A model generated the notes under the pieces. It was not told where the DNA came from, ran no database searches, and saw only the letters and a program-made list of their open reading frames with translations. A DNA stretch of 64,000 nt from Candidatus Poribacteria bacterium. GTDB lineage: Bacteria; Poribacteria; WGA-4E; WGA-3G. The translations under genes and the position numbers were made by a program. Below, piece after piece: positions 25,585-55,509 of the stretch; position 1 is the stretch's first letter; each line of letters starts with the position of its first letter. The stretch is taken from assembly GCA_965198235.1 (NCBI GenBank), contig OZ240248.1, positions 4,992,001 to 5,056,000 of the forward strand. Direction: 5' to 3'.

Positions 25585-25662
25585 GTTCGTAGTAGGGAAA
25601 CCATTCATTGCCCGTTATACACAGTTTTAGAACGTGCGATGAATCGCACGACTACAAACACA
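25585..25662. repeat. GTAG-type REP doublet
   Basis: 33-nt GAACGTGCGATGAATCGCACGACTACAAACACA at 25630-25662 is identical to 45338-45370. Confidence 0.8.
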
Positions 25663-41219: not shown

Positions 41220-42037
41220 GGGTTGGCGCAGTCTCGTTTCTGAACACCAAACCGCTCATTTATTCCCTTTTGAACGAAGAAGTCCAAACGGATATTGCGC
41301 TGAGTGTTGATGTGCCAAGCCGCGTTGCGGCACTTTTAAGCAAAGGTGAGCTGGATGTTGGGTTAATTCCGATTGTTGAATATTTTCGTGCGAATCCTTC
41401 GCATACGTCTTACTGCATTTTACCAGATATATCAATTGCGTCTCACGGAAGGGTGAAAAGTATCCAACTATTCAGTCGCGTTCCGATTCCAGAGATTCGA
41501 CGTATTGGACTCGATACGAATTCCCGGACATCTATTGCGCTGCTTAAGATCCTACTCGCTGAGAAGTATCAAATCTCTCCAGCGTTCACAACTTGTAGAC
41601 CAACAGTAAATCCAAAGACTGCCCTTCAAAATCGCCAAGATCCGCCTTTTGATGCAATCCTTCTCATCGGAGACGCAGCACTCAGACACTTCGGTTCAAC
41701 TGAATACAGTATGGACCCCGGTGAGGTGTGGTATAAGTTCACGGGTTTACCGTTCGTTTATGCCTGTTGGGTTGCCAGGACGGAAGCGCATCTCGGTGAT
41801 TTACCGGAGTTACTCCTTAAATCAAAGGCACATGGTATCGCACGAATCCCAGAAATCGCACGGATTGAGGCGCAAAAGCTTGGTTTGCCCGAGAAACTCT
41901 GCAGCCATTATTTGCAACATCATATCAAATATGACTTGGACGAATCTGCGATTAAAGGTCTTGAACTTTTTTATAAGTATGCTGTGAAGAACGATCTTGC
42001 GCCGCCGTGTCGTCGTCTGTCTTTTGCGTCTAGTTGA
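41198..42037 (+). CDS. mqnA: Chorismate dehydratase
   Basis: GAVSFLNTKPL, SRTS, LLIGDAAL, TGLPFVYACW. Confidence 0.88.
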   Translation: MVQKSRLRVGAVSFLNTKPLIYSLLNEEVQTDIALSVDVPSRVAALLSKGELDVGLIPIVEYFRANPSHTSYCILPDISIASHGRVKSIQLFSRVPIPEIRRIGLDTNSRTSIALLKILLAEKYQISPAFTTCRPTVNPKTALQNRQDPPFDAILLIGDAALRHFGSTEYSMDPGEVWYKFTGLPFVYACWVARTEAHLGDLPELLLKSKAHGIARIPEIARIEAQKLGLPEKLCSHYLQHHIKYDLDESAIKGLELFYKYAVKNDLAPPCRRLSFASS

Positions 42038-42050
42038 AAGGGGGCGGAAA

Positions 42051-42551
42051 ATGGAAGCCGTTGAAGAAGCCACTCGCGATACAGAGTTCGCAAAGCAGTT
42101 TGAAGATTATCTCAAAAGTTGTGGACTCCGTTTGACCCAAAAGCGATTGGACATTTTAAACCAGGTCTTTGACTATCCCGGACATTTTCAGACAGAGGAC
42201 CTTCTGGTGCAGATGCGTCGAAACGGCTATCTGGTGTCGCGTCCGACGATCTATCGGACGTTGCCGCTGCTGGTAAGAAGTGGACTGCTGACAGAATTTA
42301 TCGATGCACAGAAGAACACTCGTTATGAGAGTATTCATTCACTTCGGGAGCATGCGCATCTTATCTGTCTTCGGTGTAGTCAGATTGTTGAGTTTAAAGA
42401 ACCGCAAATTGATGCGTTGCAGAAAGCGGTGTGTGAAGCGCACGACTTTAAAGCCGTGCGCTTCCGTAATGAAATAATTGGTTATTGTGCTGAATGCCAA
42501 GCAGAATTAGAGCCAAGGACACCTGATAAAGACGACGAAACTACTGCTTGA
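42051..42551 (+). CDS. Fur-family transcriptional regulator
   Basis: GLRLTQKR, SRPTIYRTL, HAHLICLRC, GYCAEC. Confidence 0.92.
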   Translation: MEAVEEATRDTEFAKQFEDYLKSCGLRLTQKRLDILNQVFDYPGHFQTEDLLVQMRRNGYLVSRPTIYRTLPLLVRSGLLTEFIDAQKNTRYESIHSLREHAHLICLRCSQIVEFKEPQIDALQKAVCEAHDFKAVRFRNEIIGYCAECQAELEPRTPDKDDETTA

Positions 42552-42796
42552 GCCGACTCCACGTTGTGGTTAGCAATCCATCCGGATGCACCGGCAAAGT
42601 CTTTTCGTCGGCTTTCTCGTAGTCTTCATCCGTAGGTTGATATTCCAGGTCACTGGACCAGCAGAAAACATCGTACTGGACCTGGAGCGAACTCTGCCGT
42701 GTCCATATCATCATGACGTTCTCACCGTCTTGTAAATGGCTGGACCAGCAGAAGACAGAGGGTTAAACCGAGCGTTAATTGGAATCTCTGAAGCAT
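42541..42796 (-). pseudogene. Internally deleted/frameshifted secreted protein with TWG tail (absent from the ORF track)
   Basis: AAGGAG, then ATG 42796 MLQRFQLTLGLTLCLLLVQPFTRR*; another frame ends ...EKTLPVHPDGLLTTTWSRLKQ* (TAG 42543-42541). Confidence 0.65.
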
Positions 42797-42864
42797 TATG
42801 CATTCTCCTTCATTTGTTTTGAGTCAGTTTAAACGAATTAAGGGAGATTGTAAACTTTAAAAAT

Positions 42865-42893
42865 TTGACAATCGTCTGGAAATATCGTATAAT
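42865..42893 (+). promoter_or_regulatory. Consensus sigma70 promoter of iscU-iscA
   Basis: TTGACA-N17-TATAAT. Confidence 0.8.
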
Positions 42894-42960
42894 TGCAAAA
42901 ACAGGTTTCTTTCTAATAAAATTATAGACGTGCCTTCTTCTGCGATGCGGGAAATGTCCC

Positions 42961-43341
42961 ATGTATACGCCACAGGTGACCGAACATTACGAAAACCCGC
43001 GCAATATCGGAACTATCGTCGATGCTGATGGCACTGCCAGTGTCGGTTCTCCGGCTGACGGTGAGATGATAAAACTGACACTCAAAATATCGAATGACGT
43101 GATCGTTGCAGCGAAATTTCGAGCCTTCGGTTGCCCTACCGCTATCGCGAGTGCTTCGATCCTCACTGAACTGATTATAGGCACTCAGGTCCCGGAGGCA
43201 TTGGAAATTACTGCTGTGCAGCTTTCTGATGCGTTGGGAAGACTGCCGCTGGATAAACAACGTTACGCGAACACTGCTGAAAAAGTCCTAAAAATGGCAA
43301 TTGCTGATTTTCTGTCCAAGAAGGAGGGGCAGTCATCATGA
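42961..43341 (+). CDS. IscU/NifU-N-like scaffold protein with atypical ligand set
   Basis: EHYENPRNIG, FRAFGCPTAIASAS; only one Cys. Confidence 0.8.
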   Translation: MYTPQVTEHYENPRNIGTIVDADGTASVGSPADGEMIKLTLKISNDVIVAAKFRAFGCPTAIASASILTELIIGTQVPEALEITAVQLSDALGRLPLDKQRYANTAEKVLKMAIADFLSKKEGQSS

Positions 43342-43667
43342 TTACTGTCACAGAATCTGCCGCGCAAAAAGCGGTCGCTCTCATTAGCCACAGTGAAGCT
43401 CCAGCTGAATCCGAACTCGGCTTGCGGATGCAGGTTATCGGCGGTGGATGCTCCGGTTTCCAATATAATCTTGAGCTTGGTGCCGCGAAAGGGACCGACA
43501 AAGTTTTTGAATTTCACGGCTTGAAAGTTTTCATCGATCCTCGTAGTACGCTCTATCTCGCAGGCTCGGTACTCGACTATAACGATGGGTTGATGGATTC
43601 AGGCTTTAAAATAACAAATCCGAACGCTAAAAATACATGCGGTTGTGGTGAGTCGTTTAGCGTTTAA
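43338..43667 (+). CDS. A-type Fe-S carrier (IscA/ErpA/HesB family)
   Basis: GGGCSGFQY, NPNAKNTCGCGESF. Confidence 0.93.
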   Translation: MITVTESAAQKAVALISHSEAPAESELGLRMQVIGGGCSGFQYNLELGAAKGTDKVFEFHGLKVFIDPRSTLYLAGSVLDYNDGLMDSGFKITNPNAKNTCGCGESFSV

Positions 43668-45150: not shown

Positions 45151-45301
45151 TAACTATTTCCTTTCCGTTTTGAAAATGTAAAGAGATACGCGCCTTTTTC
45201 GCTGTTTTGCACACTATTCTATGCATGTTTTTTATTTTGTCAAGTGTGCCTTCTTGTTCTTTGAGACCATTTAGTCTTCCCTATTATAAGCCCAACGGTT
45301 C

Positions 45302-45370
45302 AGGGAAACTATTTATTGCCAATCAACACGCATTAAGGAACGTGCGATGAATCGCACGACTACAAACACA
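45302..45370. repeat. GTAG-type REP doublet (degenerate left arm)
   Basis: 33 nt identical to 25630-25662; upstream AGGGAAAC.ATT.ATTGCC also shared. Confidence 0.8.
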
Positions 45371-45525
45371 CTCGACGGATAGCCTCTAATCCGCTGACCT
45401 TTGTGAAGGTGCATCCGAAAATGTGTATGAGTGGTAAAATTGAATCACTTTACTTACCCGACACTTTTCGCGGTAAAATTTCCGTGGAACCTGAAGCGGA
45501 ATAGCTGCAGTAACGGAGGCAGATA

Positions 45526-47067
45526 GTGATAAACCTTTGTAATGTCCTAAATAGTTCGATACGTCTACAGGTGCAGGCACATTGGGAACCGATTGCGGAT
45601 TCTACGTTTCGTATGCACAAGACATCGCCAGAACACGTTGAACTCTTCGATCTGTCACCAAACCATCCTGTCAAAGAATACAGGACAGACGCTTTCAAGG
45701 CATTTCTTCCGTCATCAACTGTAGGGGTGGGTGATGTTTGGGAACTTGATCCGAACAGTGTTGTCTCTTTCCTGCGCCAGTTTCATTCCGGTGTGACCAC
45801 ACCCGTATATCACGGTGCGGAGGGTGCGTTCGCCTGCTTACGTGCTTTTTCGTCAGTTTACGCTGAGATTGTTTTCCGAATTCATGCGGACTTCACGTTG
45901 GAAAGCGTCGCTTATGAGAAGTGGCGTGCCGCCAACGCCTCGGAGGACGACGATAATAAATCCCGTTTTGTCCCCTCCCATTTCGTCGGACGATTGTTAA
46001 TCAATTTGAAAGAAGGAACGGTTCGGGTGTTTTCGCTCTATCTGCCGGCACGCAATAGTAACGTTGTCATCAGTGCTTTTGGCGGTATTGATATGGTTTA
46101 TGTGCCGCGTATGGAACTCCTCGCTACGGACGAGACCGACAAAGACGAGATCGCGTGGGATGCTGCTATTACAACGGAAGAGGCACACCGGATGTTGGAA
46201 TTGAAGTTCTATAAATTCGCTGAGATTGATTGGCTACCGATTGATGAGGCAGTTGCACAGGCGAAAGCGACCAATCGTCCGATCCATGCAATCCTCGTCT
46301 GGGGGTGTTTAGACGATGAATCCTGCTGAGCGAACGGCAAATATTTGAGGGCGGGTCCGCTCTCCGATTCAGAAGTGATAACAACGCTCAACGAGAAGTT
46401 TGTCAATACATGGGTGCTCCTCCGGGAATTGCCAGAACTAATAGGTGGTGCGAAAGGCGAGGCGGTCAGCCTCGTCGCAAAAGAGATAAAACGCCACTAC
46501 ACTGACTCTGTAGATATTCTGGCACTCACCCCCGATGCGGAAGTTATCATGCATCAGCCGGAGATGGCTCTACCGTACAGGAACCAGGCGCAAGCGTATC
46601 TAAAAGTGTTACAGCATGCTGTGGACGCATTTGAAGGGAGACGCACCCGTGTAGGCAACGCGTCAAAATTAGATCGGAACCCGATCAGCTTGGGGACGGA
46701 GTTGATGGAGGTTTTACACGTTTTTAGCACATCCGACACCAATACCCCGACTTACACAGTTATTGAAATTGATACGACACCGTTTGAACGCGGTGGGATC
46801 CTCCACATTGAAATACATGTGGGTGAGAACAGGTTGGCAGGAACGTTTGAATTGTTTGATGCAGATACCGAAATTTCTACAAAAAATGATGAAGATGAAA
46901 CTCTGGATGGTGCATGGAACGTTTCATCCGGTGGTGTAGGGCACATCTTTCACGATTTTAGTCGGGGTCGGCGTTTCAAGTTAGTCGCTACAGGGGCAAA
47001 CAACCAAAAGAGTGTTTCCAATGCTTTTCTGGCACGTGTCTCTATCGTCCCACCGTTTGAAAAATAG
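45526..47067 (+). CDS. Selenoprotein N-like protein 1, Sec at TGA 46327-46329 (~513 aa)
   Basis: ORFs 45526-46329 and 46345-47067 are in frame; read-through gives VWGCLDDESC-U-ANGKYLRAGPLSDSEVITTLNEKFVNTW; GGAGG RBS before GTG; hairpin downstream of TGA. Confidence 0.8.
46347..46364 (+). promoter_or_regulatory. Candidate bacterial SECIS element
   Basis: GAGGGCG-GGTC-CGCTCTC hairpin with GU in the loop, 17 nt after TGA. Confidence 0.7.
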
Positions 47068-47357: not shown

Positions 47358-48398
47358 ATGAAACATAAGTCGGTTTCTCCTTTTTTAGGAGTTGGAGGCT
47401 GCACCAAATTTCTAATATTCAGTTATGCTATCAGTGCCCTACTCATGTTCAGCGGCAGCACTGCTGTATGGGCAAAAGCCCCGGAGACAGCGAAAATTAC
47501 ATTTATGTCAAAGCGGGACGGTAACGCTGAGATCTATATCATGAACCCCGACGGGAGTGAGCAAGTCAATCTCACCCAACATCGTGCAGCCGATTATACA
47601 CCAGCCTGGTCGCCAAACGGGAAACAGATATTGTTCAGCTCAGATCGAGATGGAATTTTTGATTTGTATCTTATGGACGCAGATGGCACAAATGTCCGGA
47701 AGGTGTTCGCAAGCAGCAAATACAGATGGGAGCCTGCCTGGTCGCCCGATGGTAAACGAATTGCCTATGCACAAGGAGATCCAGGAAAGGCAAAACTACA
47801 GTTTGGGTTACGATTTGTCCCTTACGCCGATCTCACACTTTACATCGCAACACTAAATGGAGACTCCGTTGAGAAATTGACGGATGGATTTGGTCCGAGT
47901 TGGTCTCCTGATGGACACGAGATAGCCTTTGTGGTGGGTGGTCGCAAAAGTACACTACTGGGTATTTACGACTTGAGGAAACGTTCCCAAAAAACGCTCA
48001 TCTCAAAGAAGATGCCGTGGATATTTGATCCCAGCTGGTCTGCACAGGGTGACAGAATAGCTTTCGCGAAACTCGAGGGTGCTGCGTTTGATGCACAAGG
48101 TTTTCTTAGGTTTAAGAAGGGTACGATTTACACCATAGATAGTGCTGGGGGTGGACTTCATCAGATTACCGACGAGAACTCTTCTGACCCAACCTGGTCC
48201 CCAGATGGCAGCGAACTCATTTACAACTCTCGGGTGGGTTTTTCGCAACTCTTCAGAACGGGCTTGAACGGCGACAATCCAACACAACTGACGCATGACG
48301 GAAGTAATTTGAGTCCAGATTGGTTTGACCCCTTTTATAGCGTTTCGCCGTCGGCGCAATTGTTAACGACGATGTGGGGAAAAATCAAAGTGGATTAA
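47358..48398 (+). CDS. Secreted TolB-like PD40 beta-propeller with TWG tail
   Basis: Repeated PAWSPDG motifs; tail [16 protein letters not shown]. Confidence 0.88.
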
Positions 48399-48493
48399 GT
48401 TAACTATAAATCGTTCCAGATTCAGGGCAGTGAATGCCTTTTGCTTCCAATTGTCAAAATTTATTCCCAGATTTTCATTTTTTTTCAGAATTA

Positions 48494-48522
48494 GGCAACC
48501 GTTTTTCCGATCCTCCGCGTCA
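48494..48522 (+). promoter_or_regulatory. Candidate ECF sigma promoter, copy 2
   Basis: GAATTA-GGCAAC-N18-CGTCA-CTATAT. Confidence 0.7.
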
Positions 48523-48594
48523 CTATATATCAACACGATATTTGTGTGACAAATTTTGGAAGATTCAAATGACTCCATAGGAGGAAGCGAAAAC

Positions 48595-49416
48595 ATGTTA
48601 CGGACATTTACTGCTGCTTTTTCGAGTGTCATTATGCTATTGCTGGCAGCTTCTGCCAACGCGGGTTTGGATGAAGATCTCGTTTTTTATCTGACCTTTG
48701 ATAACGTTAAAAATCAGACGATTATTGATGAATCTGGCAATGGTCTTGATGCAGAAATACTTGAGCATGTCGAGATTGTCAAGGGTAAATATGGAGATGC
48801 AATCCGTCTTAAAGGTCAAAGCGGGGATTGCGTTAATATCCCTGCTCAAGAGAAATTGAAAGTTATAGGCGAGATAACAATGATGGCATGGATTTATTCT
48901 CCAGAAACATGGAACAACGAGAAGATGCATTGGCTGGAAAAAGATTGTCATTTCGTTGTTCCGATTGGTTGGGCGCACTGTTACGGTATCGCTGGTGTTG
49001 ATGTCGGTAACGGACCAGAAATCTTTTTGTTTTTGGGATCACAGGTAGAGGGGAAATGGGACCGGCAGGAGTTCAGAACTCCACATAAAATGGGCGAAAA
49101 AAAATGGCATCACGTTGTCGGAAGTTACGATGGCGAAACCATGAAAATCTATGTGGATGGTACAGTCATAGGGGAAGAAAAGAAAAAATTCAATTTCTTT
49201 GGAGACAATGACGCGGACGTTCGGATCGGATGTGCAAAAGATGTCCCCCACCTTACATTCACAAACGGCTCTATTGATGAAGCTGCGGTCTGGCAACGAG
49301 CACTGAGTGATGATGAAATTAAACAAGCCATGACAGGGAACTTTCTCGCTGTTTCGCCGAGCGATAAAGTGGCGACGACTTGGGCGGATATGAAAAGAAG
49401 AGCAGTCGTTCCTTAA
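48595..49416 (+). CDS. Secreted LamG-like protein
   Basis: LVFYLTFD, WHHVVGSYDG, GSIDEAAVWQRAL; tail VSPSDKVATTWADMK. Confidence 0.85.
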   Translation: MLRTFTAAFSSVIMLLLAASANAGLDEDLVFYLTFDNVKNQTIIDESGNGLDAEILEHVEIVKGKYGDAIRLKGQSGDCVNIPAQEKLKVIGEITMMAWIYSPETWNNEKMHWLEKDCHFVVPIGWAHCYGIAGVDVGNGPEIFLFLGSQVEGKWDRQEFRTPHKMGEKKWHHVVGSYDGETMKIYVDGTVIGEEKKKFNFFGDNDADVRIGCAKDVPHLTFTNGSIDEAAVWQRALSDDEIKQAMTGNFLAVSPSDKVATTWADMKRRAVVP

Positions 49417-49459
49417 CGGCTACCTGCAAAGTCAGAATTTCCCCATAAAGGAATGTAGG

Positions 49460-50482
49460 ATGAAAACAATACGGTTGTTAGTTTTTGCCATATTGAACAT
49501 ATTGATGCTGAACGTAAGCGTTTGCCTCGCTTTCGCAACAGCACCCACAACCGCCAAAATTCTGTTCACCTCTTCACGGGACGGCAATTATGAGGTCTAC
49601 ATCATGAATCCGGACGGTAGTGAACAGGTGAATTTAACACAACATCGCGCAAATGATTTTCAAGCCGTATGGTCCCCCACTGGGGAGCAGATTCTTTTTG
49701 TCTCCGATCGCGATGGCGGCATCCGAGACTTGTATCTGATGGACCCCAGTGGATCCAATGTCCGACGCGTTTTCACGAGGAAACGAAAGTCTTATAGGGA
49801 TTCTCCGACGTGGGCACCCGATGGCAACCAGATTGCTTACGTACACCTGAATTGGAACGGTGTCAGGTTCCATATCTACGTTGCAATCTTGGGTAAACAA
49901 AAAGAGGAACACCTCGTTGAGGGTAGACGTCCGACGTGGTCACCCGATGGAACGAAAATAGCATATATGTCTTATATTGTAGATACCTGCCGAATTGCTC
50001 TTATTGACCCCCACACACGAAGGCAAAAACACCTCCTATCGAGGAAAGCAACGCCTTGGCAAAATCATCCATTTTGGTCGGCTACGGGGAGCAAACTCGC
50101 TTTTTCTTGGAATAAGAATCCGTTACCGCGCCTTTTGCCGGGTGATCGTTTCCCATCCGTATGGCTGGATAAGGAGACAATCTATATTGTGAACAGCGAC
50201 GGGACCGATCTCCGAGAACTTCTGGATGAAGCTGGGCCCAGAGCACAGTATCCAGTGTTGTCGCCAGACGGGAAAGAGGTACTTTATACACAAGAAATTA
50301 AGGGTCGCCTACAAATTTTCAAACTTGATGTACACAGTGCCACTCGGGCACAGTTGACAAATATCGGGCGAGTCTTTGAGGCGAATTTCGGAGGGGATTG
50401 GTTCGATCCTGTGTATTCGTTGCCTGTTTCGCCACAATCGCGACTGCTAAGCACAGTATGGGGAAAAGTAAAAAAGAAATAG
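49460..50482 (+). CDS. Secreted TolB-like PD40 beta-propeller
   Basis: WSPTG/WAPDG/WSPDG repeats; paralog of 47358; tail VSPQSRLLSTVWGKVK. Confidence 0.88.
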   Translation: MKTIRLLVFAILNILMLNVSVCLAFATAPTTAKILFTSSRDGNYEVYIMNPDGSEQVNLTQHRANDFQAVWSPTGEQILFVSDRDGGIRDLYLMDPSGSNVRRVFTRKRKSYRDSPTWAPDGNQIAYVHLNWNGVRFHIYVAILGKQKEEHLVEGRRPTWSPDGTKIAYMSYIVDTCRIALIDPHTRRQKHLLSRKATPWQNHPFWSATGSKLAFSWNKNPLPRLLPGDRFPSVWLDKETIYIVNSDGTDLRELLDEAGPRAQYPVLSPDGKEVLYTQEIKGRLQIFKLDVHSATRAQLTNIGRVFEANFGGDWFDPVYSLPVSPQSRLLSTVWGKVKKK

Positions 50483-50568
50483 TGTCATAGGTAGAATCAC
50501 CATGAAACTGCTGTGTTATGCACGTTTTCCGCTTTGTGTATCATATTTTCTTTATGTTTGCAGAATTA

Positions 50569-50597
50569 GGCAACCGTTTTGTCTGTCTCCCGCGTCA
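50569..50597 (+). promoter_or_regulatory. Candidate ECF sigma promoter, copy 3
   Basis: GAATTA-GGCAAC-N18-CGTCA-TTATAT. Confidence 0.7.
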
Positions 50598-50669
50598 TTA
50601 TATATCGATACGATAGCTGTGTGACAAATTTTAGAAAGTTCAAATGACTCTATAGGAGGAACAGAAAAC

Positions 50670-51491
50670 ATGTTACGGACATTTATTGCTGCTTTTTCGA
50701 GTGTCGTTATACTGTTGTTGGCAGCTCCTGCCAACGCAGGTTTGAATGAGAAACTCGTTTTTTATCTGACGTTTGATAATGTTAAAGATCAGACAGTTGT
50801 TGACGAATCTGGGAATGGTCAGGACGCAGAGATACTTGAGAACACCGAGATTGTCAGGGGCAAATATGGGAATGCCATTCATATTACAGATGATGGTCAG
50901 GATTGCGTCAGTATTCCTTCTCAGGAAAAACTGAAAATTACAAGCGAAATAACAATGATGACCTGGATTTATTATCAAGAAACATGGAAAGGCAAAAGGA
51001 TGTTGCATTGGCTTGATAAAGGCTGCCATTCGGGAGACGGTTGGGCTGGAACTTACGGTATCGGCAGTTCCGATATCGGTAACGGACCAGAGATTGTGTT
51101 GTTTTTCGGGTCGCGGGAGAAACAGGGGATTACGGACCGGCATGAATTCGCAGTTCTACACAAAATGGGTGTTCAAAAATGGCATCATGTTGCTGGGAGC
51201 TACGATGGGAAAACCATGAAAATTTATTTAGATGGTAAAGTCATAGGTGCGGAAAAGAAGAATTTCAATCTCTTTGGTGGTAATAACGTGAACCTCAGGA
51301 TCGGATGCGCAAAAAACAGCCCGCAGTATGCATTTGCCAACGGTTCTATTGACGAAGCCGCAGTCTGGCAACGAGCATTGAGTGATGATGAAATCAAGCA
51401 GGCGATGGTAGGGGACTTCCTCGCTGTTTCACCGAGTGATAAAGTTGCAACGACTTGGGCGGATGTGAAAAAGAGGATGATAGCCCGTTAG
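50670..51491 (+). CDS. Secreted LamG-like protein, paralog of 48595
   Basis: High similarity including the 5' UTR; tail VSPSDKVATTWADVK. Confidence 0.85.
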   Translation: MLRTFIAAFSSVVILLLAAPANAGLNEKLVFYLTFDNVKDQTVVDESGNGQDAEILENTEIVRGKYGNAIHITDDGQDCVSIPSQEKLKITSEITMMTWIYYQETWKGKRMLHWLDKGCHSGDGWAGTYGIGSSDIGNGPEIVLFFGSREKQGITDRHEFAVLHKMGVQKWHHVAGSYDGKTMKIYLDGKVIGAEKKNFNLFGGNNVNLRIGCAKNSPQYAFANGSIDEAAVWQRALSDDEIKQAMVGDFLAVSPSDKVATTWADVKKRMIAR

Positions 51492-51639: not shown

Positions 51640-52066
51640 CTATATATCGAGATTAGAATCTACGCGAAGAACAACTTTTTGTATAAGTGTTGTTTGCGTA
51701 GAATGTTCTTGTTAATTGCTATAACGTGAGTTCAATATGAGAAATTGGTTCACTATATAGGTCGTGTTGAACAAAAAGGGACATAACACCCAAGATGCAT
51801 ATTTTGCTCCGTAGGAGCAACATGTCTATAGCAGTCGTCCGACACGACGTTTCCGCGCCGTAGGTGCGGTATGTAGTATCACCAGAGATAGCTCCGCTGG
51901 GAGTGCGAGTACTTGGGCATCGGGTTTTCTATTCTCACTGCGAAGCAATAGTACTGCTCTGGAGCGATGGAATTTGTCCGTCACCTGCTTGGAATAGGCG
52001 TGATATATCCTGTCGAATCTTTCTAATCTTTATGTCAACTCCACGTTACTATAAGGAGATTTGAAG

Positions 52067-53746
52067 ATGAAAATCTTAACCGTTGGGTTTCTTATTCTGG
52101 TAATGATGAGTGGAGTGCTGAATGCCGATAACCACTCAACAACTCACAACAAAATTACACTGAACCTTGACGGGACCCCAGAAGTATCTGTCAAAGGCTT
52201 CATTGCTCCGATTGAATATACACAATACAATTTCCATGTGGAGTGGGATGAACTGGCAAATCTGCGGGTTGCTGAGCCGGAGAAGCGGTATTCTGCATCG
52301 GTTTTCCATGCCTTTCTGCCCTCCGAAGCGGTTTCTGTAGGCGATCTCTGGCAGATTGAGGAAGAGGGGGTGCTAGAATTACTAAGGCAACTGAACCCCA
52401 ATCCGAGGCTGGACCTGGACATCAATATGGGAGATTCCCGTGGACTGTGGGCATGTCTGCGCGCCTACAATGATGAATTTGCTAAGATTGTGTTCCGCAT
52501 CCATGCAGAATTCGTCTTAAACGATGGTCGGTTCACTCCATCTCAGTTTACAGGACATCTTGTTATTGATCGAATTAGAGAGAGGATTGCCTCCTTCAAG
52601 ATGTATGTTCCTGAAGGTGTACTGAATTTTGATGTCGGGCGAAACAGTATCGGAGCTATAGATGTCGGTTTTTGCCCGCAAATGGAACTCCGTGCTAAGG
52701 CACCAGAAGTGGTATCGGACATCAAGTTTGCGGAGTCCATCACCCAAGAAGCGGCTGAGCGGGTGCTGATACTGCGTTTCTACAGATCGCAACAAATCAA
52801 CTGGGTGTCTCTGGAAGAAGCGTTAGAGACGGCACCGGCGCAACGAAAACCTGTTCATGTTGTTTCGATAGATGGACCGCTTGCGGATGAGTCGTGCTGA
52901 GGGAGTGGCAAAACTCTGAGGGCAGTTGTCCTCTCTGACGATAAAATTATAGAGTTCTTGAACGAAAACTTTGTTAACACATGGGTGCCGAATTCTGAAT
53001 TAGGGCGCGTCTCCAGTTTGCGGGAGCCGATTGACAAGAGACGCGAGCGCGAAGGTAAAACGTTTGACACAAGCCACGCCTTGGCACAAGCAATTATAAA
53101 GGGTTGGAAAGAGGGGTCGCCTGTGGATTGTCTGGTTATCTCGCCGGAGTTTGAAGTGATGGGTAGGCAACCTGTCAACGAAATCGGGTGGTCCAACGGA
53201 GTAGCATTTTACATGAATTTCCTCCAAGAGTCCTTAGAGGGGAAACTACCAGGGTTCGGTGAGGCCGCCTCGAAACCTTTACCGAAACCTAGTTCAGAGT
53301 CTTACTCTGGATTAGGTGCTGTTGTGCCAGAGGATTTAAAAGTTATACTCACCCGTGAAAAGCCCCAGCAGGAAGTTCTCAGCATTTTCCGGACACCAGA
53401 ATCCGGCTATCAAGATTATACTGTCGTTGAAATTGATACGACAGCGTTTAAAGGCGGCGGTATGCTTACTATTGATATCTTAGTAGGAAGTGCTGAATCC
53501 AAAGGCTCGTTCGATCTTTATGATGGTGACACTGAACTTCCAACACAAGGTATGCCTCGCGGCGCGCTTACCTCTGCGTGGGATGTTCCTCCCGGTAAAA
53601 GAGGAACAATCAAGTATCGTTTTGACCGGGGTAAAGTTTTTAAGTTAGGAGCTACAGGCAGTTGGTTCAGTAAGGAAGGGAACATCAACGCTTTTCTCGC
53701 TACAATTTCTGTAGCCCCTATGGCGAAAGAAAGTAACGAACATTAA
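52067..53746 (+). CDS. Selenoprotein N-like protein 2, secreted, Sec at TGA 52898-52900 (~559 aa)
   Basis: ORFs 52061-52900 and 52958-53746 are in frame; read-through gives GPLADESC-U-GSGKTLRAVVLSDDKIIEFLNENFVNTW; signal peptide MKILTVGFLILVMMSGVLNA. Confidence 0.85.
52918..52933 (+). promoter_or_regulatory. Candidate bacterial SECIS element
   Basis: GAGGGC-AGTT-GTCCTC hairpin with GU in the loop, 17 nt after TGA (same offset as copy 1). Confidence 0.7.
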
Positions 53747-53842: not shown

Positions 53843-55171
53843 ATGAAAAACGACGATGTCGAATTAATTCAAGGCAGTCTTATAGGCGATGAAAAAGCCT
53901 TTGCGAAGTTGGTGAGAAAATACCAGAAGCAGGTTCACGCACTCGCGTGGCGGAAAGTAGGCGATTTCCACATCGCTGAAGAGATTACGCAGGATACCTT
54001 TTTAAGGGTTTATAAGAAACTGGCAACGCTGAAGGATCCGCATCGTTTTGCAGGATGGCTTTATAGAATCGCTGCACGCCAATGCCATGCCTGGCTCAGA
54101 AAGAAACGGATGCAAACGCAATCGCTTGAAGACACAGACATCGAACTGATAGAGGGAGGGACGTATTCTCAATACATTGCCGAGGAGCAGGAGAAAGCTG
54201 CGGTAGATGCGCAACGCGATATTGTCCAAAGGTTACTCGCTCGGCTGCAGGAAAGTGAACGCACTGTCGTCACACTCCACTACTTCGGGGAGATGACCTG
54301 TGAAGAGATTAGCCGATTTTTGGGTGTATCAGAGAGTACCGTTAAGAGTCGGCTCCGCCGTGCGCGGCACCGCTTAAAGAAGGCGGAACCCATGATCCGA
54401 GAGGCACTGGAAGGCTTCCAAGTTAGGGCGAATCTCACCGAGAATATCATGCAAGAAATTGCCCGTATCAAACCTACTCCACCGCCCAGTGGTAAACCGT
54501 TTGTGCCGTGGACAATTGCCGCCTCAACCCTTGTTCTCGTTGTGATGGCACTTGGAGCAAGTAGTCAGTACTTAACACGTTTCCAACAACCTTACAATTT
54601 TGATGCCACATCCGAAATGACAGTAGAACTCATTGACACGCCTATGGTTCTGAATCTCGCATCGAAACCGGATGTGCGGACCCAAGCCGGTAAATCTGTG
54701 ACACCGAGTAAAGGCGACGGACATACCCCGAGCACAAATCAATCAGAATATGTGCCGAGATTTCTTTCTGCCCAAGCAAAGAACGTCGTGCTTGATAATA
54801 AACAGCCTTCGCAGGATGTTTTGAGCATTTTCCAAACACCGGCGGCGGGCTATCAAGACTACACTGTCATTGAGATTGATACGACGGCATTTAAAGATGG
54901 CGGCACGGTCACTATCGACCTTTGGATTGGGAGCGCAGAGGCTGCTGGTGCTTTCATTCTGTTTACAAGCGACAGCGAAATCCCCACAGACAGTATGCCT
55001 AAGGTTATACTCACCTCAGCATCAGGAATCATACCCGGTAAATCAGGGCGGATCACGCACCGTTTTGACGAAGGCACACGCTTTAAGTTAGGAGCTACCG
55101 GTAATTCGTTCAGTGGGGAAGGGAAGGTCAATTCCTTTCTCGCAAAAATCTCTATAGACGCTACGTTGTGA
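53843..55171 (+). CDS. ECF sigma-70 factor fused to a TM helix and an extracytoplasmic domain
   Basis: Region 2 (AEEITQDTF, FAGWLYRIA), region 4 (EEISRFLGVSESTVKSRLRRAR), TM WTIAASTLVLVVMALGA; C-terminal domain shared with both SelN-like proteins. Confidence 0.9.
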   Translation: MKNDDVELIQGSLIGDEKAFAKLVRKYQKQVHALAWRKVGDFHIAEEITQDTFLRVYKKLATLKDPHRFAGWLYRIAARQCHAWLRKKRMQTQSLEDTDIELIEGGTYSQYIAEEQEKAAVDAQRDIVQRLLARLQESERTVVTLHYFGEMTCEEISRFLGVSESTVKSRLRRARHRLKKAEPMIREALEGFQVRANLTENIMQEIARIKPTPPPSGKPFVPWTIAASTLVLVVMALGASSQYLTRFQQPYNFDATSEMTVELIDTPMVLNLASKPDVRTQAGKSVTPSKGDGHTPSTNQSEYVPRFLSAQAKNVVLDNKQPSQDVLSIFQTPAAGYQDYTVIEIDTTAFKDGGTVTIDLWIGSAEAAGAFILFTSDSEIPTDSMPKVILTSASGIIPGKSGRITHRFDEGTRFKLGATGNSFSGEGKVNSFLAKISIDATL

Positions 55172-55509
55172 TAATCTTAATCCGCGAACTTGTATTGAAA
55201 CTTTCGCAACTCCTGCCTAATCGCTGTATTTCTCGTTCTGCCGTTTTCTCTCCACTTATTTGACAAAAGGTAAACCCTCCAGCTCGTCCTACGTTTTAAC
55301 TTTCCAATATACCGCCAGTAGAATCATTTGTACACTTTGAATCGCAGGAAATCTATGAGGAAATCCCACGAACCTGTATGTATGAGTTGATTCATGGTAT
55401 AATTCTACCAATAAATTCGTTTGTCCAAATTTAATCTACATAGGACTTACACAAACACGGATGTCTGGGACTACAAGTGAGCCTGATTTTTACGTTTTTT
55501 CTGAACTTA

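Follow-up and report, generated by a model that had tools for sequence, protein, structure and literature searches.

Gene 45526–47067, located in a 64,000-nucleotide stretch of DNA from a Candidatus Poribacteria bacterium (GenBank assembly GCA_965198235.1, contig OZ240248.1, positions 4,992,001 to 5,056,000 of the forward strand; hereafter the window), carries a TGA codon in its reading frame, which raises the question of whether this codon is a stop or is translated as selenocysteine (Sec). The original prediction described the gene as one of two divergent paralogs resembling selenoprotein N (SelN), in which the TGA at 46327 directly follows the residues ESC. The codon is present as described, at codon 268, and is the sole internal stop of the 513-codon frame. 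It is preceded by ...WGCLDDESC, i.e. ...ILVWGCLDDESC, and followed by ANGKYLRAGPLSDSEVITTLNEKFVNTWVLLREL, the local sequence around the putative Sec codon being ...PIHAILVWGCLDDESC-TGA-ANGKYLRAGPLSDSEVITTLNEKFVNTWVLLREL.... The analyses presented below make it highly likely that this gene encodes an intact, cytoplasmic, Sec-containing homolog of selenoprotein N.

The occurrence of the TGA codon was surveyed in 176 genomes of the same phylum. SelN-type matches were found in 131 of them (109/111 in family f1, 10/11 in f2, 11/29 in f3 and 0/24 in the other eight families), with up to 14 matches per genome. Among the 150 matches listed, 148 contained an in-frame TGA, nearly always exactly one, the two exceptions being L058, a truncated copy in which TGG (Trp) occupies the site, and L062, which has an internal deletion. 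Orthologs of the same architecture, 66–82% identical to the product, were present in 29 other genomes, and all 30 orthologous rows (66–100% identity) showed the TGA after GC(L/V)D(D/N)ESC or GALDDESC. All loci fetched, after two further motif matches had been dropped as unrelated sequence, comprised 90 distinct family segments, with TGA in 89, TGG in one and TAA or TAG in none. In addition, BLASTP matched the read-through products of 45526–47067 and 52061–53746 along their entire length (35% identity, E 1e-92), one TGA facing the other in the alignment, which confirms that two divergent paralogs keep this codon at the same aligned position. The contention that the TGA is no random nonsense mutation is thus borne out by the 89/90 segments and the 148/150 listed matches, and the outcome that had been named as speaking against it, homologs split by varying TAA or TAG stops, was observed in 0/90 segments.

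In the databases the family appears in two pieces. Of the 76 best matches, 74 end in ...ESC, and 44 further matches begin with (M/L).(A/V)GPLS..., just past the site. From the TGA to TTG 46345, the first codon at which translation could restart, there are five codons, and these differ among sequences chiefly at third positions (GGC/GGT/GGA, AAC/AAT, AAA/AAG); this stretch therefore looks translated. As to whether Cys or Sec is found at this position in other genomes, TGA occupies it in 89/90 segments, and Cys-Cys is found at the site in five unsplit database proteins (P0130, P0132, P0137, P0144 and P0153). Bacterial selenoproteins are recognized by a UGA conserved in homologs together with Cys homologs elsewhere, and at the level of sequence this gene presents both. 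TGA 46327 very probably encodes Sec.

The source genome (5.17 Mb in 2 contigs, 96.3% complete) contains the full Sec machinery: a tRNA-Sec (78.1 bits; anticodon TCA according to ARAGORN) located directly beside selB, and the genes selB (348 bits), selA (592 bits) and selD (360 bits), all four above curated cut-offs. Gene selD (G000:C1:3115227–3116150, L020) has one in-frame TGA itself, and would encode a Sec-type SelD. TGA ends ordinary genes of this genome too, e.g. the neighbor 53843–55174, and a general code change is therefore not the explanation.

A hairpin resembling a bacterial Sec insertion sequence (SECIS) is located 3' of the codon. The loop of bacterial SECIS elements lies 16–37 nt after the UGA, and the GGUC loop of the hairpin begins 25 nt after UGA 46327; a stem-loop shortly 3' of the UGA with a G in the apical loop, as in bacterial SECIS elements, is formed by 46347–46364. 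Pairing was assessed in 67 family sequences with the GGUC loop type, 60 of them distinct. The stem was paired in 97.4% of 420 cells, versus 35.5–68.6% when the partner was slid by 1–3 columns. Two-sided changes were found at 2 of the 7 pairs, one from G-C to C-G (three sequences, with Leu>Phe and Ser>Cys) and the other from C-G through U-G to U-A. In the secreted clade the hairpin has 6 bp, with the register shifted by 2 nt and an AGKU loop (GAGGGC-AGKU-GYCCUC); of 138 cells, 98.6% are paired, and one pair has changed from G-C to A-U. In paralog 52061–53746 it takes the form GAGGGC-AGUU-GUCCUC, in the shifted register. Combined, the conserved TGA, the complete Sec machinery and the SECIS-like hairpin 3' of the codon sustain the claim that this is a selenoprotein gene.

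To place the protein, a profile built from 14 full-length family members (A1) was searched against 1.84 billion representative proteins, which yielded 945 proteins at E up to 0.001. Of 149 newly listed matches, 93 end in (E/Q)(S/A/T)C, and are therefore also cut at the Sec site. The profile matched P0206, a marsupial UniRef protein of 588 amino acids, at E 1.9e-47; relatives of P0206 are named Selenoprotein N in UniRef and NCBI, and include a human entry. By BLASTP, the product of 45526–47067 aligned with P0206 at 29% identity (E 2e-35), with residues 58–296 matching 209–490, so that the homology covers both the redox domain and the domain preceding it. These matches justify the SelN-like label, and the product is, by these sequence comparisons, a signal-less bacterial homolog of selenoprotein N. 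Other resources returned little: NCBIfam gave a match at chance level only, and a sequence search of the PDB, run with the protein alone and again with the profile, gave 0 matches at E up to 1.

In the vicinity of the site, the protein lines up column by column with records named Selenoprotein N. Animal SELENON (SEPN1/SelN) and the bacterial protein share ca. 240 homologous residues, a Sec (predicted in the bacterial protein) directly after Cys, and the pattern ...(V/I)H.(I/L)L.WG.LDD(E/Q)SC-U-..G(K/R).LR...L......LLNE.F(V/I).(T/S)W.L..(E/D)L; the bacterial proteins begin about where the conserved core of animal SELENON begins. With the conserved UGA read as Sec, the site would be S-C-U, the following residue being Ala in this clade (SCUA-NGK) and Gly in the paralogs (SCUG). 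As in human SELENON, an RNA hairpin stands just 3' of the UGA; the human one, the Sec redefinition element (SRE), lies directly after the UGA and resembles bacterial SECIS elements (PMC12936836). Differences are also evident. The bacterial protein carries an additional beta-sandwich at its C-terminus, its location is probably the cytoplasm, whereas SELENON is found in the lumen of the endoplasmic reticulum (ER), and, unlike SELENON with its SECIS in the 3' untranslated region, its Sec insertion would have to rest on a bacterial in-frame SECIS.

The product is organized in three domains. The N-terminal one, containing the motifs FRIHA.F ... PSQF.G, is homologous to the region of SELENON that precedes the thioredoxin-fold domain. 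A full-length AlphaFold model had a predicted local distance difference test score (pLDDT) of 72.2. Because the C-terminal beta-sandwich filled the Foldseek list obtained with this model, the middle domain was modeled alone (residues 196–385, 23 aligned sequences), with pLDDT 87.2 and a predicted template modeling score (pTM) of 0.79. VIA-align related it to 3f9u_B (Z 13.4), Thermus thioredoxin 2lst (12.7), DsbH 2ju5 (12.3), AGR3 3ph9 (12.1) and 7tkv (11.4), and to the UAS domains 2dlx (Z 10.0; root-mean-square deviation 3.3, 120 aligned) and 2ec4 (Z 9.9); Foldseek retrieved 7tkv_B at E 3.5e-5. The redox domain of SELENON is UAS-like. As modeled, the middle domain adopts a thioredoxin fold in which the loop connecting strand beta-1 to the next helix contains Cys-Sec, at the position of the CxxC of thioredoxin. 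The nearest solved folds are those of Thioredox_DsbH/DUF255 and DsbD-gamma-like domains (PF03190; 7tkv, 2ju5 and 3f9u; Z 11.4–13.4), from which this domain differs by an adjacent C-U instead of CxxC and by a Pfam Thioredox_DsbH score of 17.1 bits (E 0.0056), below the gathering cut-off of 27 bits. For the C-terminal domain (model residues 383–513), VIA-align found the C-terminal domain of Tk-SP (9ues_B, Z 10.9), PliG (4dzg, 10.2), GOLD (7rrm, 10.0) and the collagen-binding/PPC domain of ColH (3jqw, 9.2). This beta-sandwich is probably a partner-binding module.

The start of the gene bears on the location of its product. An in-frame TAA at 45511–45513 closes the frame 12 nt upstream of GTG 45526, which is also the start in the open reading frame listing; this TAA and the Shine-Dalgarno sequence GGAGG preceding the GTG leave no space for an N-terminal extension. 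Location was judged from inspection of the sequence and from hydropathy. Within residues 1–60 the top 15-residue Kyte-Doolittle mean was 0.75, versus 2.49 for MKMKILTVGFLILVMMSGV of the paralog, the N-terminus of which reads MKMKILTVGFLILVMMSGVLNA. The starts of the orthologs coincide with this one or precede it by a few codons, and a hydrophobic N-terminus was seen in none of them. The lack of a signal peptide in this copy holds as predicted, and the paralog has a signal-type N-terminus. The product would be cytoplasmic, and it is plausible that the gene pair covers the cytoplasm and the envelope. The original prediction had also pointed to an extra cysteine in the WGC motif. This residue, Cys261, can be read in the sequence and is kept in 29/30 orthologous rows, L051 having Ala; more distant members have GPLDD or GALDD, so that the extra Cys is real in this copy but limited to the close ortholog group rather than common to the signal-less clade as a whole. 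A sponge metatranscriptome library contains a contig that spans 45300–46654 unbroken, across the TGA, with one differing letter, which is compatible with a single transcript. RNA runs X6 and X7, with coverage limited to small portions of the gene, provide no evidence either way.

These data suggest the following mechanism. UGA 46327 would be read as Sec by the SelA, SelB, SelD and tRNA-Sec of the genome, with hairpin 46347–46364 and its GGUC loop recruiting SelB as bacterial SECIS elements do. Adjacent Cys and Sec in the GCUG center of thioredoxin reductase can form a selenenylsulfide ring and, by analogy with that GCUG end, Cys267-Sec268 would most likely cycle between the selenenylsulfide and the selenol/thiol. 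The adjacent Cys-Sec is common to both proteins; in thioredoxin reductase, however, the pair is carried on a flexible C-terminal tail of an unrelated fold, whereas here it would lie at the active site of a thioredoxin fold. The protein would thus probably be a thiol/selenol oxidoreductase with a client in the cytoplasm, and Cys261 may be the resolving residue in this ortholog group.

Table 1. Coordinates of the selenoprotein gene, its elements and related neighboring genes (positions in the window).
Feature	Positions	Strand	Details and basis
Selenoprotein gene, complete	45526..47067	+	513 codons, GTG start, TAG stop 47065–47067, predicted Sec at codon 268
Shine-Dalgarno GGAGG	45515..45519	+	Sequence; 6 nt 5' of GTG 45526
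N-terminal alpha/beta domain (ca. residues 1–200)	45526..46125	+	BLASTP vs P0206, conserved A1 columns
Thioredoxin-fold domain (ca. residues 229–377)	46210..46656	+	Domain model, VIA-align, Foldseek
Extra cysteine C261 (WGC), TGT	46306..46308	+	Six residues before the Cys-Sec pair
Putative Cys267-Sec268 redox pair, TGC-TGA	46324..46329	+	Sequence, family TGA conservation, domain model
SECIS-like hairpin GAGGGCG-GGUC-CGCUCUC	46347..46364	+	7-bp stem, loop 46354–46357, 17 nt from UGA to stem
C-terminal beta-jelly-roll/sandwich domain (ca. residues 383–509)	46672..47052	+	VIA-align, tblastn
Paralog	52061..53746	+	Signal-type N-terminus, ...DESC-U-GSGK, only TGA = codon 280
ECF sigma factor with one membrane span and the same C-terminal beta-sandwich	53843..55174	+	Pfam Sigma70_r2, Sigma70_r4

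The gene is part of a larger set. The source genome has five SelN-type genes predicted to contain Sec: this gene, a signal-less one with 54% identity, two of signal type and one fused to redoxin. The redoxin-fused gene (G000:C1:1798435–1800177, L055) encodes 580 residues with DESC-U-GTGK and a C-terminal redoxin/AhpC-TSA-like domain; the downstream half of this type corresponds to the 44 separate database proteins named 'redoxin' that begin with MRAGPLSS.... Secreted or lipoprotein-type SelN homologs of Poribacteria, such as 52061–53746, share with the gene the three-domain plan, the Cys-Sec site, the place of the hairpin and the genomes, and differ in their signal-type N-terminus, in having GSGK or ASGK after Sec and in lacking Cys at the WGC position. 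A signal-type paralog was found within 1.5–2.5 kb flanks in 11/66 orthologous loci, the locus sets overlapping in genomes.

Gene order in this part of the window is Fur, NifU, IscA, a divergent GH32 gene, the selenoprotein gene, two cassettes, the secreted paralog and a fusion of an extracytoplasmic function (ECF) sigma factor, the paralog and the ECF gene being located ca. 5 kb and ca. 7 kb, respectively, from the selenoprotein gene. The Fur-family regulator, NifU-N and IscA-type genes (41997–43667, plus strand) lie upstream of the GH32 gene, and NifU/IscA recur beside orthologs in several genomes. Between the two SelN genes, 47358–51491 (plus strand) contains two tandem cassettes, each with a PD40 beta-propeller gene and a LamG (concanavalin-like) gene; the regions upstream of both LamG genes are duplicated as well, and the number of cassettes varies among orthologous loci. 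The ECF gene product has a hydrophobic span at about residues 220–238, and by tblastn its beta-sandwich is 59.7% identical over 124 amino acids to the C-terminus of the paralog and 42% identical to the product of 45526–47067. Fusions of an ECF sigma factor to the N-terminal half of SelN, cut at ...AESC, are found in databases (P0074 and P0077). A 34-nt intergenic repeat with the inverted repeat GTGCGAT..ATCGCAC occurs at 45338–45371 and at 25630; the genome contains 13 copies at up to 5 mismatches, and a DNA run showed a depth spike of about 100-fold there.

Several observations weigh against the interpretation of the gene as an intact Sec-containing SelN homolog. Selenium insertion into the product is inferred from sequence. 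The metatranscriptome contig may stem from DNA contaminating the RNA library, and is silent on translation of the UGA. Trp stands in the Sec column in L058 (G025:C1; truncated, TGG) and in P0124 (full length, 526 amino acids), and some copies thus do without Sec; such copies could be decaying or could be forms that work without it. Regarding the homology, Ala follows the putative Sec in this protein (SCUA), versus the Gly of SELENON (SCUG), no EF-hand family was among the Pfam matches of the product at E up to 1, and no membrane span was found, the best 19-residue Kyte-Doolittle mean being 1.26 and located inside a beta-strand region. With EF-hand and membrane anchor both absent, the calcium-sensor/SERCA mechanism of SELENON is not applicable here. 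In the full-length model, pLDDT drops below 50 near residues 261–274.

The hairpin also has its weaknesses. Its structure was derived from the same sequences used to test the pairing, and two-sided changes were found in only 5 of the 420 cells. The region is coding, the 5' arm encoding a conserved Leu-Arg-Ala, and conservation could therefore be largely at the protein level. The 80-nt folds after the Cys codon, at the sites of both genes, were no more stable than those of shuffled sequences (z -0.23 and -0.55); energies of single sequences do not single out the hairpin, so that the case for it rests on conservation. At gathering thresholds, Rfam had 0 matches in the window, and RNAalifold, run on 20 mixed family members, favored a helix between GAGSG at the UGA and the same 3' arm. 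This alternative helix (46329–46364) was ranked below the local hairpin, 5 of the 20 sequences breaking its pair 10–38. The two helices are mutually exclusive and could form a switch. On balance, hairpin 46347–46364 is taken as the likely SECIS, with the UGA-proximal helix kept as an alternative.

Were TGA 46327 a true stop, the locus would consist of two genes, encoding 267 amino acids and, from TTG 46345, 240 amino acids, or of a recent pseudogene. This is how every gene caller treats it, splitting the frame, and the 74/76 best database matches that end in ...ESC agree with such an arrangement, as do the TTG located 16 nt after the TGA and the use of TGA as an ordinary stop elsewhere in the genome (53843–55174). 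It is, however, very improbable in the face of a codon that is TGA in 89/90 diverged segments and never TAA or TAG, of codons conserved at the protein level from the TGA to the TTG, of Cys forms and animal SELENON that run unsplit and colinear across the site, and of a complete Sec machinery; moreover, no Shine-Dalgarno motif precedes TTG 46345.

Two further possibilities accept the Cys-Sec pair and concern the place and the role of the protein. It could be a real selenoprotein that reaches the envelope although it has no classical signal, e.g. carried by a partner or over a non-classical route, and acts there like its paralogs. Its close relatives are secreted or of lipoprotein type, a secreted paralog and an ECF sigma factor with a sensor domain outside the membrane are encoded nearby, its C-terminal beta-sandwich is similar to domains found in secreted proteins (PPC/collagen-binding, PliG, GOLD), and animal SELENON works in the oxidizing lumen of the ER. 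By contrast, neither this protein nor any of the 9 other signal-less A1 rows shows a hydrophobic stretch at the N-terminus, a stop codon 12 nt before the start closes the frame, and the signal-less form is a conserved clade in many genomes rather than a truncation, all of which makes export quite unlikely. Alternatively, the redox pair may not be catalytic in the thioredoxin sense, the protein serving as a module for selenium or metal binding, sensing or storage that feeds an ECF sigma pathway. Such a role would fit the ECF-sigma::SelN-half fusions (P0074 and P0077), the C-terminal domain shared with the ECF neighbor, and the Fur-family regulator and NifU/IscA genes upstream. We nevertheless consider it unlikely: Cys-Sec occupies the site where thioredoxin folds carry out catalysis, the redoxin/AhpC-TSA domains fused to a sister subfamily speak for redox chemistry, and the link to the ECF gene is loose, across ca. 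7 kb and with intervening cassettes that vary between genomes. A cytoplasmic, Sec-containing oxidoreductase related to SELENON thus remains the preferred interpretation.

Regarding the distribution of the family, the 80 loci retained of 233 related ones are all from Poribacteria according to their record titles, and one more distant relative is named as from a deltaproteobacterial (Deltaproteobacteria) metagenome-assembled genome. In quick, unrooted trees, made while the careful search was incomplete, an ESC-type group that includes this gene was separated from a QSC-type group, both named by motif, with vertebrate SelN on the QSC side (support 88–91). The approximately unbiased (AU) test, which bears on the direction of transfer between bacteria and animals, did not reject the QSC-type bacteria as a clade without eukaryotes (p 0.277).

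A broader proposal can be put forward, which we regard as doubtful: SelN would be an old bacterial invention, the human SRE a relic of a bacterial SECIS, and the Poribacteria proteins a two-compartment selenium redox relay read by ECF sigma factors. Such a relay would comprise the cytoplasmic ANGK forms, the secreted GSGK forms and the redoxin-fused form, with the beta-sandwich as the sensor domain of the ECF proteins. The descent of the human SRE from a bacterial element is speculation; mutations of the SRE in human SELENON mRNA cause disease and, were the proposal true, the bacterial proteins would be a tractable model for the chemistry of a human disease protein.

A literature search, the coverage of which did not extend to subscription journals, returned no paper on bacterial selenoprotein N. 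In a term search, a 2026 review of prokaryotic selenoproteomes named selenoprotein N once, in its reference list (PMC13188914). This gene contributes a signal-less clade of ANGK type that has a third cysteine. The hairpin, positioned like the human SRE, leads to a testable idea on the origin of the SRE. Selenoprotein N is mutated in human SELENON-related myopathies and, to our knowledge, its reaction and substrates are still poorly defined; a signal-less bacterial homolog with the same Cys-Sec and neither anchor nor EF-hand would be a simpler object for expression, structure determination and substrate trapping. For Poribacteria, the finding adds a multi-copy selenoprotein family, represented five times in this genome and by up to 14 matches in a single genome of the phylum. 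Gene callers without exception cut these genes short, and the selenoproteome and redox biology of these sponge symbionts are therefore under-annotated.

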